Of a stretch of DNA of 64,000 bases, positions 32,975-39,001 are shown piece by piece; position 1 is the first letter of the stretch; each line of letters starts with the position of its first letter. Both the position numbers and the translations under genes were made by a program. The stretch lies in the NCBI GenBank assembly GCA_029557905.1, contig JAKQHR010000092.1, positions 11,228-75,227 on the forward strand, written 5' to 3'. This DNA comes from Verrucomicrobiota bacterium. GTDB taxonomy: Bacteria; Verrucomicrobiota; Kiritimatiellia; JAKQHR01. The notes under the pieces were generated by a model that was given only the letters and a program-made list of their open reading frames with translations, made no database searches and was not told the origin of the DNA.

Positions 32975-35362
32975 ATGGCCCTGAAAGCAGATAAAGTCAG
33001 TTCGATGCTGTGCAGTCACTGCGGAGCCGCCATGGATGTGTCTTCACAGGACCCGTTTTCCACGGCGCTGTGCCCGGCTTGCGGCCGTTCGCAGATAGTG
33101 CCGATGCAGTTCGGCTCGATCCTTCTTCTTGAACCGCTTGGGGCCGGAGGCATGGGGGCCATCTACCGCGCGCTGGATCCCATGCTGGACCGCTATCTGG
33201 CCATCAAGGTGATGCAGACCGCCGGCGCGGCAGATGATCAGTTCGTGGAGAATTTCTTCCGTGAAGCCCGCGCCGCCGCCGCGCTCAACCATCCCCACAT
33301 CGTTCAGATTTATTCCTGCGGCCGCGAGTACGGCCAGCCCTACATCGCCATGGAACTGCTGGAGGGAGGGACCCTCGATGAGATGATCCATTCTTCCGGC
33401 ACCGTGGACGAGCTGGATGTTCTGCAAATCGGCATATCTGTTTCCGAGGGTCTTCGGGCTGCAGGCGAAATCGGGCTGACGCATGGAGACATCAAGCCCG
33501 CCAATATTCTTTTCGACAGCCATCACAAGGCCAAGATCGCCGATTTCGGACTGGCCCGCTTCATGCAGCAGGGCTCCTCCGCTGAAATATGGGGAACTCC
33601 TTTCTACATTGCTCCCGAGAAACTGCGGAAGCAGAAGGAGGATCAGCGTTCCGATATCTACAGCCTCGGCGCCACGCTTTTTCACGCACTGACCGGGCAG
33701 CCCCCGTTTGACGGCAAGACGGCCACGGATGTGGCGGTCGCCCGTCTGGACCAGCCGCCGCCGGATGTCCGCGACAGAAATCCGGGAATATCTCCCGAAG
33801 TGGCGGCGGTCATTGCGCGCATGCTCAAGGAGAATCCGCACGAGCGATATCCCACCTATGCTTCGCTGATTGCCGACATGAAGAGTGTGCTGGCGGTGCT
33901 TCGGCAGAAACGCGGCAGCCGGCCGATGCGTCCTAAAATGAGGAAATCGCACGCGGGCGCTTTTGTGGCCGCGGCCCTTTTTGCGCTTATTGCCGCGGGG
34001 ATATGGATGAGCCAGCGCGAAGGTTCGGGGCCTCCCGAGGGTCCGCTGTCCGGCCCGTCTCGTCCGGAGGAACCCGCCGTGCCGGAGATGCGGGGAAGTA
34101 AGCCTTTTGAGGGCGTTCGCGGAACCGCCATGGAACGGATACTGAACCTGTTCGCCGCCGGGAATGTCATGGCGGCATCAGAAAGTCTGCAGGCGCTGTA
34201 TGAAAAAATTCCCCCGGACAGTCCGGATCGCTCGTGGATATGCCTGTTTCAGGCGCTGATGCTCTGGTATGACGGAAACGGCGGGAGCGGGGATGAACTG
34301 CTTGACCGGGCTCTGGCCGGGTTCGCCGGGAGCGATGCCTCGGCCGGCGCCCTGATCGCCGCATACATGAAGGGGAATATGGATGAGGCGGCGGTTGAAG
34401 CCTCTGCCGGCGAGCAACCGCAGTGGGTGGGCGATTTCACCGGATTTGTCGCGGGTATGAATCATGCCCGGCAGGGACGAAAGGATGAAGCGGACGTGCG
34501 CTGGCGCACTTATCTTCAGACCACGAATGACAAGCCGGCCTGGGTTTATGTCCTGAAGCCTCTGGCGCAGAAATTCACGGAAAGTCACGCCCGCTGGGAA
34601 CGTCTGAATGCGGAAGTGACCGCTCTGCTCGAAGCCCGCAAACCCGGAGAGGCCCGGGTTCTTCTGCGCGATTTCAAGCTGACCGCCGGTCCGGTCTTTG
34701 CCGCTGAAACGGATCAGCTCTTCGAGAAGGTTCAGGCGCTGGAAGCCTCGCTGACCGAGGCCGAGGCGGCCCGCCTCGCGGAACAGCAGGCTGCGGCCGC
34801 CGCCAGAAAAAAAGCAAAAGCCGAGTCCGAGGTCGCAAAGGTTCGGAAAGCGGTGGAATCCGGCCGGAGACACTATCCCTCCAGGGATTTCGATAGGGCT
34901 CTAGCCGCAATTGAAAAGCTTCGGCCCGCGATGACTACGGAAGAGGGATGGGTGGAATATCAGCTGGCGCGCGAAAAAGTGTCCCGTCTTGACGCAATGC
35001 ACCGCTATCTCCAGAACGCATTGCGCACGCGTCCCTGCAGAATCAGTGTGTTCGGGAAAAACACGCGCGTGGCGGGAGCAACCTCGCGTGGTGTGCGCGT
35101 GGCGATTGGCACTCAGGCCGATATGGTGCGGGAGTGGCAGGAGATCACGGCGGCCCAGTATGTCGGCCTGATTCGCCAGTATCTTGATGCTGAACAGAAA
35201 ACCGTGCGCGAGAAAGCGGATGATCATCTCAGCCTGGCCGTGTTCGCTTCGGAAACAGACGGCGGACAGCTGGCCGCGCAGCTTGCGCGAAAAGCCGTGG
35301 CGCTGGATCCGGCCGTCAGGGATCTCGGCCTGCGCCTTCTGCCTGATCTGGACTGGGAATAG
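32975..35362 (+). CDS. Hanks-type Ser/Thr protein kinase with N-terminal zinc ribbon, single TM helix and ~450 aa helical extracytoplasmic C-terminal region
   Basis: CSHCGAAMDV...CPACGRSQIVP zinc ribbon; kinase subdomains LGAGGMGAIYRA, AIKV, HGDIKPANILF, DFG, GTPFYIAPE; TM AGAFVAAALFALIAAGIWM; C-terminal alpha-helical region with a coiled coil. Confidence 0.88.
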   Translation: MALKADKVSSMLCSHCGAAMDVSSQDPFSTALCPACGRSQIVPMQFGSILLLEPLGAGGMGAIYRALDPMLDRYLAIKVMQTAGAADDQFVENFFREARAAAALNHPHIVQIYSCGREYGQPYIAMELLEGGTLDEMIHSSGTVDELDVLQIGISVSEGLRAAGEIGLTHGDIKPANILFDSHHKAKIADFGLARFMQQGSSAEIWGTPFYIAPEKLRKQKEDQRSDIYSLGATLFHALTGQPPFDGKTATDVAVARLDQPPPDVRDRNPGISPEVAAVIARMLKENPHERYPTYASLIADMKSVLAVLRQKRGSRPMRPKMRKSHAGAFVAAALFALIAAGIWMSQREGSGPPEGPLSGPSRPEEPAVPEMRGSKPFEGVRGTAMERILNLFAAGNVMAASESLQALYEKIPPDSPDRSWICLFQALMLWYDGNGGSGDELLDRALAGFAGSDASAGALIAAYMKGNMDEAAVEASAGEQPQWVGDFTGFVAGMNHARQGRKDEADVRWRTYLQTTNDKPAWVYVLKPLAQKFTESHARWERLNAEVTALLEARKPGEARVLLRDFKLTAGPVFAAETDQLFEKVQALEASLTEAEAARLAEQQAAAAARKKAKAESEVAKVRKAVESGRRHYPSRDFDRALAAIEKLRPAMTTEEGWVEYQLAREKVSRLDAMHRYLQNALRTRPCRISVFGKNTRVAGATSRGVRVAIGTQADMVREWQEITAAQYVGLIRQYLDAEQKTVREKADDHLSLAVFASETDGGQLAAQLARKAVALDPAVRDLGLRLLPDLDWE

Positions 35363-35393
35363 CGAGGCTGAACTGGAGGCGGGGGTAAAAACA

Positions 35394-37111: not shown

Positions 37112-39001
37112 TTGTCTGAAAACGGCGTAATAGAAATACAAACGGATCGTGTTGAGCGGCTGGCCTGTTCGCAGTGCGATGCGCGCATGGATGTTTCGAA
37201 AATTCCGGCCTTCACGATTGCCAAATGTCCGCAGTGCGGAGCCCCGATGCCTGTGCCCGCCCGATTGAGCCAGTTTCTCCTTTTCCGGGAACTGGGCAAG
37301 GGGGCCATGGGCGCCGTGTATCAGGCGTTTGACACCACGCTGGCCCGGCATGTGGCCATCAAGGTGATGAGCAGCAAACTCGGAGCAAACCGGGCGTTTG
37401 TCGAAAGGTTTTTCAAAGAGGCGCGTGCGCTGGCCGCCCTGAACCATCCCAACGTCGTTCAGATCTATTCCTGCGGGGAGGAGAAGGGCCAGCCGTACAT
37501 TGTCATGGAACTCGTTCCCGGCGGCCGCGTGGATGCGCTTATGGAGGAGAGCCGTATCTCCGAGCTTCGCGGCCTGGAAATCGGCGTTGATGTAGCCAGC
37601 GGTCTCAAGGCGGCATCCGATATCGGCCTGGTTCACGGTGATGTTAAGCCCGAGAACATTCTCTTCAATCGCGACGGGCTCTGCAAGGTGGTGGATTTCG
37701 GCATTGCCCGCTTTGCGGGCGAGCAGAGCGATGGCGGCGGGATTTGGGGCACACCCTTTTATATTGCGCCTGAAGCGGTGCGCGGACAGGCCGTTGATCA
37801 GCAGGCTGACATTTACAGCCTGGGGGCCACTCTCTTCCATATTCTGGCCGGGCGGCCTCCGTTTGATGCGGAGACGGCTAAGGAAGTCATACTGGCCCGG
37901 CTCAAATCGCCGGCCCCCTCCCTCACGGAATTCTGTCCGGAGATCCATCCGGAAACGGCGCGGGTGGTTGGCCGCATGCTGGAGGAATCTTCCGTCCGCC
38001 GCTATCCCACCTATGAATCGCTGCTGGCGGACATGCGATCGGTGCTTGAACGGGTTCGCGCGGAATCCAGAGTCAGGCCGGGAAGCCGGAAGAAAAAAAA
38101 GCAGGCCGGGCATCCCCATGCCGTCACCGCGGTGATTGTGACCGTTCTGGCACTGGGCATTCTGGGCGTGATCTTCGCCGGCATGAAGAATGCCAGAAAG
38201 AGTGTTTCCCGTCAGCCGGCTGTTCCGCAGGTCCCGCCGGGCACGGTGCTGGTCAAGCCGTCTTCGGCCGCATCGCCGTCGCCACAGGCTCCGGCCGCGT
38301 CCGCCCCGGCGGCCCGTCCGTCTTCCCCCGCCGCCGCGTCCCCGCCGCAGGCGGGTGCGTTTGAACTTCGCCTGACCACAAAAGATGCAGGCGGCGCGGA
38401 TGCGTATGTTCAGGGCGGCAAGAGCGGCGGAGACAAGAATTTCGGACAGGAAGATGTGCTCTGGCTGAAATCCAACGATCAGGTTCCGATTCATCTGGTC
38501 AGAAAAGTTTATCTGCGTTTTGGTCTGGATGATCTGGCCGAACGTAAGGTGCGTGACGCGGAACTCAAGCTGACGGCGACCCCGGGCGGTTCCAACAGGA
38601 ACGATCTGTATAAAATCAAGCTGTGGGGTCTGGCCAAGCCGTCTTCGAAAGGCGACTGGGCCGAGATTGATGACGGGTCCTTTGATGCATGGGCCAACCG
38701 GCTGACCTGGAACAACGCGCCGGGAAATGATTTCAGGAGTCCCGATGGCATGTCGGAGGATGCGGTGCTTTTGTGCGTTGTGAATGCGCACCCGAATCCG
38801 CCGGTCGGCGCGGCCGTGTCCTTTTCCAATGCCGATTCAGTCAGCAAGGATGCCCTGGTGGACTTCATCAGCGCCCGCCGGGGAAGCGTGACATTCATGC
38901 TGACGGCGGAGGGCGGTCCGTCAAATGTCTACGGATGGAAGTTCGCATCCAAGGAGCATGCGTACCTCAATCCTCCGGAACTGACGGTGCGCGGCGAATA
39001 G
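37112..39001 (+). CDS. Hanks-type Ser/Thr protein kinase with N-terminal zinc ribbon, single TM helix, Pro/Ala-rich linker and extracytoplasmic DNRLRE/CBM96-like domain
   Basis: CSQCDARMDV...CPQCGAPMPVP; kinase LGKGAMGAVYQA, AIKVM, HGDVKPENILF, DFG, GTPFYIAPE; TM AVTAVIVTVLALGILGVIFAGM; C-terminal ADAYVQGG...NFG...VYLRFGL...LTWNNAP pattern. Start taken as the TTG at 37112 preceded by aggagt (alternative TTG at 37088). Confidence 0.85.
   Translation: MSENGVIEIQTDRVERLACSQCDARMDVSKIPAFTIAKCPQCGAPMPVPARLSQFLLFRELGKGAMGAVYQAFDTTLARHVAIKVMSSKLGANRAFVERFFKEARALAALNHPNVVQIYSCGEEKGQPYIVMELVPGGRVDALMEESRISELRGLEIGVDVASGLKAASDIGLVHGDVKPENILFNRDGLCKVVDFGIARFAGEQSDGGGIWGTPFYIAPEAVRGQAVDQQADIYSLGATLFHILAGRPPFDAETAKEVILARLKSPAPSLTEFCPEIHPETARVVGRMLEESSVRRYPTYESLLADMRSVLERVRAESRVRPGSRKKKKQAGHPHAVTAVIVTVLALGILGVIFAGMKNARKSVSRQPAVPQVPPGTVLVKPSSAASPSPQAPAASAPAARPSSPAAASPPQAGAFELRLTTKDAGGADAYVQGGKSGGDKNFGQEDVLWLKSNDQVPIHLVRKVYLRFGLDDLAERKVRDAELKLTATPGGSNRNDLYKIKLWGLAKPSSKGDWAEIDDGSFDAWANRLTWNNAPGNDFRSPDGMSEDAVLLCVVNAHPNPPVGAAVSFSNADSVSKDALVDFISARRGSVTFMLTAEGGPSNVYGWKFASKEHAYLNPPELTVRGE

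Follow-up and report, generated by a model that had tools for sequence, protein, structure and literature searches.

A putative four-cysteine zinc ribbon set at a fixed distance before the catalytic core of two transmembrane Ser/Thr kinases from a Kiritimatiellia bacterium

Two genes in a 64,000-nucleotide stretch of a Verrucomicrobiota genome (Kiritimatiellia; contig JAKQHR010000092.1; hereafter the window) encode Hanks-type Ser/Thr kinases that begin with the same four-Cys module, continue through a single transmembrane (TM) helix, and end in unrelated domains. What does a zinc ribbon (ZnR) do in front of the core of a membrane-anchored kinase? Our preferred answer is that both proteins belong to a large family of bitopic Ser/Thr receptor kinases from the PVC superphylum, in which the ribbon would cap the N-lobe and serve a regulatory or docking role; taking family, cap, and role together as one claim, we are evenly poised between accepting and doubting it.

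Kinase 1 (K1; 32975..35362, + strand; 795-aa ORF) comprises the ribbon, a non-RD (HGD) Hanks kinase, one TM helix, and a TPR-like, predicted periplasmic domain. Kinase 2 (K2; 37088..39001, + strand; 637 aa from the first TTG) comprises the ribbon, a non-RD Hanks kinase, one TM helix, a Pro/Ala/Ser linker, and a CBM96/DNRLRE domain. Its true start is probably the TTG at 37112, which has AGGAG 7 nt upstream and gives a 629-aa product that corresponds to a database protein (P0121). The two kinases are 51% identical across residues 1–345, Cys module included, and show no relatedness beyond, which bears out the first-pass annotation of this DNA as encoding paralogous kinases with a shared ribbon, one TM helix each, and unrelated outside domains.

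The catalytic domains of K1 (residues ~49–312; 33119..33910, +; placed by Pkinase match, alignment, and Foldseek) and K2 (residues ~63–325; 37274..38062, +; HGD catalytic loop) match Pfam Pkinase with E values of 6.7e-49 and 1e-45, respectively. All catalytic residues of K1 (K78, E97, H170-G-D172, K174, N177, DFG190–192, and APE) are conserved in an alignment of 111 sequences; judged by their intact catalytic residues, both proteins are active-looking Hanks kinases. The sequences and a hydropathy scan place the TM helices at residues ~327–345 of K1 (33953..34009, +; AF2 helix 327–339), with a basic cluster toward the kinase side, and at residues ~345–366 of K2 (38120..38185, +). Most relatives have one TM helix at the equivalent position, and Kiritimatiellia contain more than 120 full-length K1 orthologues at 35–40% identity.

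For the catalytic domain, the best match in sequence and structure is to PknB/Stk1-type TM kinases (E ~3e-50; Foldseek TM-score 0.82–0.90, normalised to target length), which share with K1 and K2 a bitopic receptor topology and a variable extracytoplasmic sensor. Unlike those kinases, K1 and K2 have no PASTA domains (the NCBIfam score of 280 falls below the equivalog cutoff of 450), read HGD rather than HRD, and carry the extra N-terminal ribbon, which the top PDB kinase matches leave uncovered (~260–283 of 340 residues aligned).

The C-terminal domains of both kinases probably lie in the periplasm. That of K1 (34010..35359, +; AF2 pLDDT 92.5) opens with ~35 disordered residues; TPR-like helical repeats follow, then a helix of 60 residues, a small beta meander of three strands, and more helices. 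No Pfam family was matched by the C-terminal 455 aa of K1, and comparison with the PDB gave weak TPR matches only (best E 2e-3, low TM-scores). In K2, the outside domain (residues 437–634; 38396..38989, +) had been called DNRLRE/CBM96-like, and searches with Pfam and NCBIfam models agree: CBM96 matches with E 5.5e-11 in the full protein and 1.8e-12 in the ectodomain alone, and DNRLRE with E 1.8e-8, just above cutoff. The domain is kept in K2 orthologues. The founding CBM96 member has alginate as its ligand (PMC9971899).

The ribbon occupies residues ~10–46 of K1 (33002..33112, +; Cys13, 16, 33, and 36; knuckle core 33011–33082) and the corresponding part of K2 (37136..37258, +; Cys27, 30, 47, and 50 in 637-aa numbering; knuckle core 37166–37237). 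Its motif had been written as CxxC-(x15-19)-CPxCG-x-P; in both proteins the spacing is exactly x16, and the second half fits K2 (CPQCGAP) but not K1 (CPACGRS). What the family keeps is CPxC-x6-P: C13, C16, C33, C36, and P43 are invariant in the 111-sequence alignment. CxxC-x16-CxxC is present in 112 of 120 K1 homologues, the remaining eight being truncated start calls, and in 78 of 78 further matches from a search with K2 (190/198 combined). At the sequence level, this conservation is far beyond chance. The N-terminus is also confidently predicted to be folded, with pLDDT 89–97 for residues 1–50 in the AF2 model of K1 (pTM 0.84); thus neither a lack of Cys conservation among orthologues nor predicted disorder, which the first-pass annotation named as counting against its reading, is seen.

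Compared with solved structures, the ZnR profile matches the zinc ribbons of LysW, Rpo12, and eS27 and also resembles those of TFIIB and XPA; a domain search gives a weak HVO_0758 Zn-finger match for K2. The ribbons of K1 and K2 are predicted to bind metal. LysW/Rpo12-type ribbons are the best sequence matches, with identical x16 spacing (LysW 5K2M, E 2.6e-6). Both are free-standing small proteins with other roles (amino-group carrier and RNA polymerase subunit, respectively); the resemblance shows fold class, not function.

The distance from ribbon to kinase is equally constant. An inter-knuckle spacer of 16 together with a 19-residue stretch between the last Cys and the Gly-loop occurs in 259 of 262 proteins and at 52 of 55 GTDB-species loci; profiling across PVC genomes, as first suggested for this architecture, thus finds it in Kiritimatiellia, Lentisphaerae, and Verrucomicrobiota, in HRD and HGD kinases alike. 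Were the ribbon on a flexible tether, the tether length would be expected to differ between proteins; the constant 16/19 spacing therefore points to rigid attachment. In the AF2 model of K1, predicted strands (10–12, 19–21, 30–32, 39–41, and 44–46) run continuously from the ribbon into beta1. Because the spacing is fixed and the AF2 confidence scores are high, the ZnR is predicted to pack on the kinase N-lobe.

On sequence comparison, the closest precedent for this arrangement is the rubredoxin-like (Rdx) domain of Mycobacterium tuberculosis PknG, which adjoins the catalytic core, limits access to the substrate site and so lowers catalysis, and touches the beta3-alphaC loop (PMC8546545). PknG (PDB 2PZI, 4Y0X, 7Q52) joins an Rdx-like domain to a non-RD kinase and a TPR domain. 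With K1 and K2 it shares a four-Cys, two-knuckle metal-binding domain (putative in K1 and K2) directly before kinase beta1, a CPxCG...P...L pattern, and a non-RD catalytic loop (YND in PknG, HGD in K1/K2); with K1 it shares a TPR (TPR-like in K1) C-terminal to the kinase. When the family profile is aligned by hhalign to a verified PknG sequence, both Cys knuckles fall on the Rdx knuckles and the alignment runs through the kinase (prob 99.7), and a BLASTP alignment of K2 with PknG starts at the first Cys and spans 316 aa at 27% identity (E 4e-21). The ZnR alone against Rdx alone scores a prob of 50%, which is suggestive only. Pfam PknG_rubred (PF16919) was not among the domain matches of K1 or K2, PknG was absent among the best 50 Foldseek and best 60 phmmer matches, and none of those matches covers the ZnR. 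The metal domain is naturally missing in some members of both groups: corynebacterial PknG lacks Rdx (PMC8546545), and ~11 PVC paralogues from gut and rumen lack the ZnR.

PknG also differs in several respects. It is soluble with a cytoplasmic TPR, whereas K1 and K2 are anchored by a TM helix, with predicted periplasmic C-terminal domains; the inter-knuckle spacer of PknG is 18 rather than 16, and its linker to the Gly-loop has 7 additional residues. The kinase domain of K1/K2 resembles that of PknB much more closely than that of PknG, and K1/K2 lack PknG's long autophosphorylated N-terminal tail and glnX-glnH operon context. Unlike PknG, the Verrucomicrobiota ZnR-kinase relatives are RD kinases; the Kiritimatiellia and Lentisphaerae members are non-RD (HGD).

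Beyond these two kinases, the ZnR-kinase unit is very common across PVC phyla and is kept in hundreds of these bacteria: clustering at 50% identity gives 2570 clusters, and genomic matches number at least 600. Some relatives carry 3–4 tandem ZnRs ahead of the kinase, and other ZnR arrays occur without any kinase. A third ZnR in the window, which forms the N-terminus of a multi-TM membrane protein that is not a kinase (57134–57847), has x16 spacing and CPACGAP...P, and matches the ZnR profile (hhalign prob 94.8%, E 5e-8) better than PknG Rdx does. These arrangements are more readily explained by a general partner-binding module than by a regulatory cap specific to kinases, and they raise the less probable but tenable alternative that the ZnR mainly localises the kinase or brings a soluble regulator, scaffold, or substrate to it, rather than regulating it intramolecularly. 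Tandem and kinase-free arrays suggest multivalent binding, and the profile weakly matches the solved AgmX/GltJ ZnR (E 0.019). ZnRs are described as modules that bind protein or nucleic acid; that of GltJ recruits MglB and binds the adjacent linker, and that of ZitP binds PopZ (PMC11135422). By analogy, the third ZnR keeps such partner docking plausible. GltJ/AgmX (Myxococcus; PDB 7ZOK) and ZitP (Caulobacter) are likewise bitopic membrane proteins that begin, on the cytoplasmic side, with a CxxC...CxxC ribbon, but theirs leads into a flexible linker and no kinase, whereas in K1/K2 the ribbon is fused at fixed distance to the N-lobe. The invariant 19-residue link and continuous predicted strands argue for rigid integration over a tethered domain, and the genes nearby offer no candidate partner, with lgt and rluD the only conserved neighbours. 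Recruitment would nonetheless be compatible with the N-lobe cap that we favour, since a rigid cap can double as a docking surface.

PknB-type kinases are activated through N-lobe dimerisation. Given the PknB-like kinase domain, the predicted N-lobe location of the ZnR, and the need of non-RD kinases for a switch other than activation-loop phosphorylation, the ribbon might pair the cytoplasmic kinase domains as homodimers, either in place of the back-to-back N-lobe dimer of PknB-type kinases or in addition to it. We consider this improbable: it does not obviously account for tandem arrays or ZnR-less paralogues, and none of the zinc ribbons matched by the profile among solved structures is known as a dimerisation module.

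The genomic neighbourhood bears on a further suggestion, that the ribbon binds DNA or RNA and connects the kinase with DNA repair or with translation. The kinases do flank a tRNA-Asp (GTC; 35394..35470, −; ARAGORN) and a 491-aa uvrC (GIY-YIG, UVR, RNase H-like, and HhH; 35579..37054, +), as first annotated, but this adjacency is lineage-specific, with uvrC in 0 of 86 related loci; both genes are incidental neighbours. The uvrC is compact, although in Kiritimatiellia, cultured species included, uvrC normally has this short form of ~490 aa. Conserved next to K1 orthologues are instead the Pfam-identified lgt (32104–32898, −) and rluD (31224–32153, −), which are divergent from K1 and keep this arrangement in loci L001 and L002 and in 35 of 63 PVC loci; K2 orthologues occupy other contexts. 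Likeness to Rpo12, eS27, TFIIB, and XPA ribbons, a JGI annotation of one homologue as a "predicted RNA-binding Zn-ribbon protein," and the conserved rluD speak for nucleic-acid binding. Against it, the protein is membrane-anchored, the likenesses are generic zinc-knuckle matches, and the conserved non-Cys residues noted in an unsystematic look are D, F, P, Q, and G, not basic. Nor is the uvrC/tRNA adjacency conserved; we find no support for this suggestion and hold it to be very unlikely. The phosphatase that had been noted 25 kb upstream is a SpoIIE-type PPM (PP2C-like) with two N-terminal TM helices (6797–7978, −; 25.0 kb), but no evidence links it to K1 or K2. The framing by uvrC, tRNA-Asp, and phosphatase is thus mostly incidental.

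Together, these comparisons qualify the earlier view that the architecture is not standard. A four-Cys domain directly before a kinase core is already known from PknG, and the unit is common in PVC bacteria; the receptor-kinase version is apparently undescribed, being named by no curated model in Pfam or NCBIfam searches, and our literature search found no description of a zinc ribbon on receptor kinases. We propose that a four-Cys zinc ribbon, with a fold of the rubredoxin-like class, extends the catalytic core N-terminally and is held against the N-lobe in a fixed geometry. The periplasmic domain would sense ligand, the TPR-like solenoid of K1 possibly binding a protein or envelope partner and the CBM96/DNRLRE module of K2 a glycan, and the signal would be passed across the membrane by the one TM helix, probably by way of an altered oligomeric state. 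In Kiritimatiellia and Lentisphaerae, the non-RD (HGD) loop makes control by activation-loop phosphorylation unlikely, and regulation by an accessory domain is to be expected. The cytoplasmic ZnR may fill that role as an N-lobe cap that, like the Rdx domain of PknG, modulates catalytic activity or the access of substrate and also offers a docking surface.

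The first kinase gene, K1, occupies 32975-35362 on the forward strand and encodes 795 residues; it is followed by tRNA-Asp(GTC) at 35394-35470 on the reverse strand, by uvrC at 35579-37054 (forward strand, 491 aa), and by its paralogue K2 at 37088-39001 (forward strand), which encodes 637 aa when counted from the first in-frame TTG. The true start of K2 is most likely TTG 37112 rather than TTG 37088, because an AGGAG sequence (37100-37104) lies 7 nt 5' of the former and the resulting 629-aa form is identical to a database gene call (protein P0121); K2 residue numbers below follow the 637-aa form. 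The window is 60% G+C, and the closest database entries are proteins from Kiritimatiellia MAGs, one of which is 100% identical to the uvrC product. A scan of the kinase region for promoters and terminators yielded counts that were not above those in shuffled sequence.

Both products are Hanks kinases. Their scores against the Pkinase family (PF00069) are 167 bits for K1 and 157 bits for K2 (gathering cutoff 31.7), and the full catalytic set is present (Gly-rich loop, VAIK Lys, αC Glu, catalytic-loop Asp/Lys/Asn, DFG, and APE), with G56/G58, K78, E97, D172, K174, N177, D190-F-G, and P214-E215 of K1 invariant in an alignment of 111 sequences. The catalytic loop reads HGD rather than HRD in K1, K2, and 192 of the 198 homologues recovered by the K1 and K2 searches, which places both among the non-RD kinases; Verrucomicrobiota relatives carry an HRD loop. 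Scores against the NCBIfam model for Stk1/PknB PASTA kinases (NF033483) were 280 and 267, where an equivalog scores at least 450; the match is confined to the kinase part (profile positions 12-285 of 563), and the Pfam/NCBIfam profile search detected no PASTA repeats in either protein. As proposed in a first-pass annotation of this DNA, the two share a kinase part and differ in their outside domains: K1 and K2 are 51% identical over the first 345 residues and unrelated thereafter.

Each kinase domain is preceded by an N-terminal zinc ribbon (ZnR) built on four cysteines, C13-xx-C16-x16-C33-P-x-C36 in K1 and C27-xx-C30-x16-C47-P-x-C50 in K2, with a conserved Pro six residues past the last Cys. 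The CxxCG form occurs at both knuckles of K1 and only at the second knuckle of K2. The two CxxC pairs had been recognized in the first-pass annotation, but with a spacer of 15-19 residues, where it is exactly 16, and with a CPxCG-x-P element that fits K2 only. Conservation of these pairs in orthologues is clear: C13, C16, C33, C36, and P43 show no variation in the 111-sequence alignment, like all of the kinase catalytic residues, and CxxC-x16-CxxC is present in 112 of 120 K1 homologues (the other eight are start-codon truncations that retain the second knuckle) and in 78 of 78 further proteins from the K2 search. The spacer is 16 residues in all 262 ZnR-kinases, and 19 residues separate the last Cys from the first Gly of the Gly-rich loop in 259 of them (20 in the other three). 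This 16/19 geometry recurs in 52 of 55 species-representative loci, including 30 HRD-type kinases, all from Verrucomicrobiota-labelled loci, and 21 HGD-type kinases. Since the length of the tether is constant over this divergence, the alignments point to a rigid structural unit joining ZnR and kinase rather than a flexible linker.

Structure prediction and profile comparison agree on the nature of this module. An AlphaFold2 model of K1 residues 1-340, built with the 111-sequence alignment, had a mean pLDDT of 89.9 and a pTM of 0.84. A disordered N-terminus had been allowed for at the outset; instead, residues 1-50 are confidently folded (pLDDT 89-97), and confidence is low only at the activation loop (197-206) and the juxtamembrane segment (318-325). 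Short strands at 10-12, 19-21, 30-32, 39-41, and 44-46 lead directly into kinase β1 (49-57); in the model the first four flank the Cys pairs, an arrangement consistent with two knuckle hairpins. When a 52-column ZnR profile was compared with solved structures, the best match was LysW (E 2.6e-6), which has the x16 spacing too, with lesser matches to Rpo12, eS27, and, weakly, the AgmX/GltJ ribbon. The predicted module is thus a classical zinc ribbon of the rubredoxin-like fold class, and its four cysteines would be expected to bind one Zn (or Fe) ion. A Foldseek search of the PDB with the ZnR-plus-kinase model returned the kinase domains of PknB, PknA, and PknI, with approximately 260-283 of the 340 residues aligned, and among these matches no solved kinase spanned the ribbon as well. 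No Pfam or NCBIfam model names the ZnR, which drew only weak, generic zinc-ribbon matches; source annotations read 'serine/threonine protein kinase', with a Zn-ribbon COG added in one JGI entry. In those portions of the literature accessible to our searches, including surveys of serine/threonine kinase domain architectures, we found no description of a ZnR joined to a Hanks kinase.

Among 1.84 billion representative sequences, the ZnR profile matched 2570 clusters (50% identity) at E≤1e-3 and 372 at E≤1e-10. The best 150 clusters consist mostly of proteins with an N-terminal ZnR, a kinase domain, and one TM helix, and their total lengths of 540-1100 aa imply many different ectodomains. With each GTDB species represented by a single genome, we obtained at least 600 matches; nearly all of the 80 loci that we kept are labelled Kiritimatiellia, Lentisphaerae/Victivallales, or Verrucomicrobiota (Chthoniobacterales, Verrucomicrobiales, Udaeobacter), and a few have taxon labels that look mis-binned. 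The exact x16 ribbon is present in 64 of these 80 loci and an x15 form in two. Together, these searches show a collinear four-Cys module of fixed geometry at the head of a very large family of predicted transmembrane receptor kinases in Kiritimatiellota, Lentisphaerota, and Verrucomicrobiota. About 11 paralogues from gut and rumen Kiritimatiellia and Lentisphaerae have no ribbon and start approximately 10-15 residues before β1 (loci L031, L034, L039, L050, L062, L063, L071, L077, L078, L082, and L083), and they provide natural ZnR-minus comparators. Conversely, some Lentisphaeraceae and Verrucomicrobiota relatives place three to four tandem x16 ribbons ahead of the kinase, and other proteins contain arrays of 6-9 ribbons without a kinase (proteins with tandem ribbons of either kind: P0199-P0205, P0206, P0207, and P0245).

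Two further predicted ribbon proteins lie in the window. A putative 237-aa non-kinase protein (57134-57847, forward strand, where ORFs overlap on both strands) begins with a CPSC-x16-CPACGAP...P ribbon; a basic linker comes next, and then hydrophobic segments that are probably membrane-spanning. A 292-aa protein (2918-3796, reverse strand) combines a C4 Zn_ribbon_9 domain (Pfam, E 3.9e-10) with PTS EIIA_2 (E 5.7e-23).

In PknG of M. tuberculosis, a rubredoxin-like (Rdx) domain with two CxxCG motifs lies directly beside the catalytic core and a TPR domain follows the kinase; the Rdx domain, which has been presented as part of a 'unique' architecture, reduces the accessibility of the substrate site and constrains the β3-αC loop, and is absent from corynebacterial PknG (PMC8546545, PMC9344462). 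Proteins are assigned to the PknG family by a PknG_rubred domain (PF16919) or by two CxxCG motifs adjoining the kinase core (PMC8546545). Using a PknG sequence identical to PDB entries 7Q52, 4Y0X, and 2PZI over 310 residues, we found that profile comparison with the PVC family aligns both ZnR knuckles to the Rdx knuckles and continues through the kinase, with gaps of two residues in the spacer and seven before β1. BLASTP aligned K2 with PknG at 27% identity over 316 residues, from the first Cys onward, and PknG is likewise a non-RD kinase (YND). However, the catalytic domains of K1 and K2 are much closer to PknB-type kinases, and whereas PknG is soluble and encoded in a glnX-glnH operon, K1 and K2 are predicted to span the membrane and K1 has lgt and rluD as neighbours. 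PF16919 matched neither full protein at E≤0.01, nor was it among the 25 best matches of the isolated N-termini, and the ZnR alone compared with the Rdx alone gave a probability of 50%, suggestive at most. We therefore rejected true PknG orthology, and treat PknG as a likeness for how ZnR kinases may work rather than as their family.

Common ancestry of the ZnR-kinase unit and the actinobacterial Rdx-kinase unit, as an ancient and widespread metal-gated module, seems unlikely to us. If it were true, the PknG architecture would be one branch, the PVC module would have become coupled to transmembrane sensing, and K1 would be a PknG analogue that spans the membrane and turns its TPR-like domain towards the periplasm; the four-Cys centre would be a redox- or metal-sensitive gate in hundreds to thousands of receptor kinases, and the presence of this ribbon on membrane proteins without a kinase domain would suggest a common cytoplasmic partner.

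Our preferred reading, which we regard as evenly balanced against the rest, is that K1 and K2 are bitopic kinases that would respond to ligand, with the ZnR rigidly capping the N-lobe, where it would tune catalysis or substrate access and could also provide a docking surface. For non-RD members, the ZnR may supply control that activation-loop phosphorylation does not. A more doubtful alternative is that the ZnR serves mainly to recruit partners. GltJ and ZitP, both of them bitopic membrane proteins, bind partners through a cytoplasmic N-terminal zinc ribbon (PMC11135422), and K1 and K2 resemble them in carrying such a ribbon on a predicted bitopic protein; the putative non-kinase membrane protein at 57134-57847, whose ribbon matches the kinase ZnR profile with an hhalign probability of 94.8% (E 5e-8), keeps a docking role in play. 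Recruitment is nevertheless compatible with a rigid cap rather than exclusive of it. Of the other roles raised in the first-pass annotation, ZnR-mediated dimerization appears very unlikely, and nucleic-acid binding by the ZnR highly improbable.

One hydrophobic helix lies C-terminal to each kinase domain (approximately 327-345 in K1 and 345-366 in K2), with a cluster of basic residues on the kinase-facing side in K1, and by topology rules the C-terminal domains should be periplasmic. The last 455 residues of K1 matched no Pfam family. Their model (pLDDT 92.5) comprises all-helical repeats, a 60-residue helix, which accounts for the coiled coil suggested earlier, and a small β meander. All PDB matches found by Foldseek were TPR proteins, although weak (E≥2e-3, TM-scores ≤0.39), and a TPR_19 match occurs in one K1 orthologue, whereas K1 itself has no Pfam TPR match; we call the modelled domain TPR-like, not TPR. 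In K2, a Pro/Ala/Ser-rich linker leads to the DNRLRE/CBM96-like β domain anticipated from the sequence, which scores 43-48 bits against CBM96 (cutoff 26) and, marginally, 34.7 bits against DNRLRE (cutoff 34), matches from which its ligand specificity cannot be read. Kiritimatiellia are polysaccharide degraders, and a glycan-sensing role for this domain would fit that lifestyle. The CBM96 family is defined by alginate binding, and its founding member binds alginate (PMC9971899).

Divergent lgt and/or rluD genes lie immediately upstream of K1-type genes in 35 of the 63 PVC loci with enough upstream sequence, an arrangement seen in the window (31224-32898, reverse strand), at L001 and L002, and in the L007-L086 set of related loci; in Verrucomicrobiota, rluD alone adjoins the kinase. 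The kinases may be functionally tied to lipoprotein biogenesis in the envelope, or the adjacency may be an ancestral gene order that has been retained. K2 orthologues adjoin MacAB-like efflux genes or form tandem K2-type pairs. At L005 and L006, two ZnR-kinase-CBM96 genes stand in tandem, indicating recent duplication within the K2 subfamily.

The kinases do flank tRNA-Asp and uvrC in the window, as first described, but the arrangement is incidental: uvrC was near a ZnR-kinase in none of 86 related loci, and K1 and K2 orthologues sit elsewhere, so a functional link was rejected. Nor is the compact uvrC a peculiarity. In the window gene, approximately 165 profile positions are missing from the stretch that connects the UVR motif to the RNase H-like endonuclease domain, and lengths of 485-510 aa are typical of Kiritimatiellia, cultured species included (Kiritimatiella glycovorans, Pontiella desulfatans, Tichowtungia aerotolerans); approximately 490 aa is the standard form in this class. 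The phosphatase noted 25 kb upstream (6797-7978, reverse strand) is indeed membrane-anchored, with two N-terminal TM helices, but it is a SpoIIE-type PPM (PF07228) located beside ruvB (8067-9080) among unrelated housekeeping genes. SpoIIE-type phosphatases are typical of partner-switching pathways, and a role for this one as the cognate phosphatase was not supported. Among the 22 window ORFs scanned, there was no gene for an FHA-domain protein or other obvious substrate.

ZnR kinases are Hanks kinases with an accessory, predicted metal-binding domain; they are widespread, do not amount to a new kind of system, and are noteworthy to specialists for their invariant geometry and their parallel with PknG. 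How accessory domains regulate bacterial Hanks kinases has been worked out for only a few examples, and ZnR kinases offer a second, independent system in which metal- or redox-gating of the kinase N-lobe could be tested. The signature CxxC-x16-CxxC-x19-GxGxxG can be used to annotate proteins now labelled just 'serine/threonine protein kinase'. For polysaccharide-degrading PVC bacteria, cultured representatives among them, the family provides candidate receptors for glycan sensing, through CBM96 ectodomains, and for envelope sensing, through TPR-like ectodomains linked to lgt.
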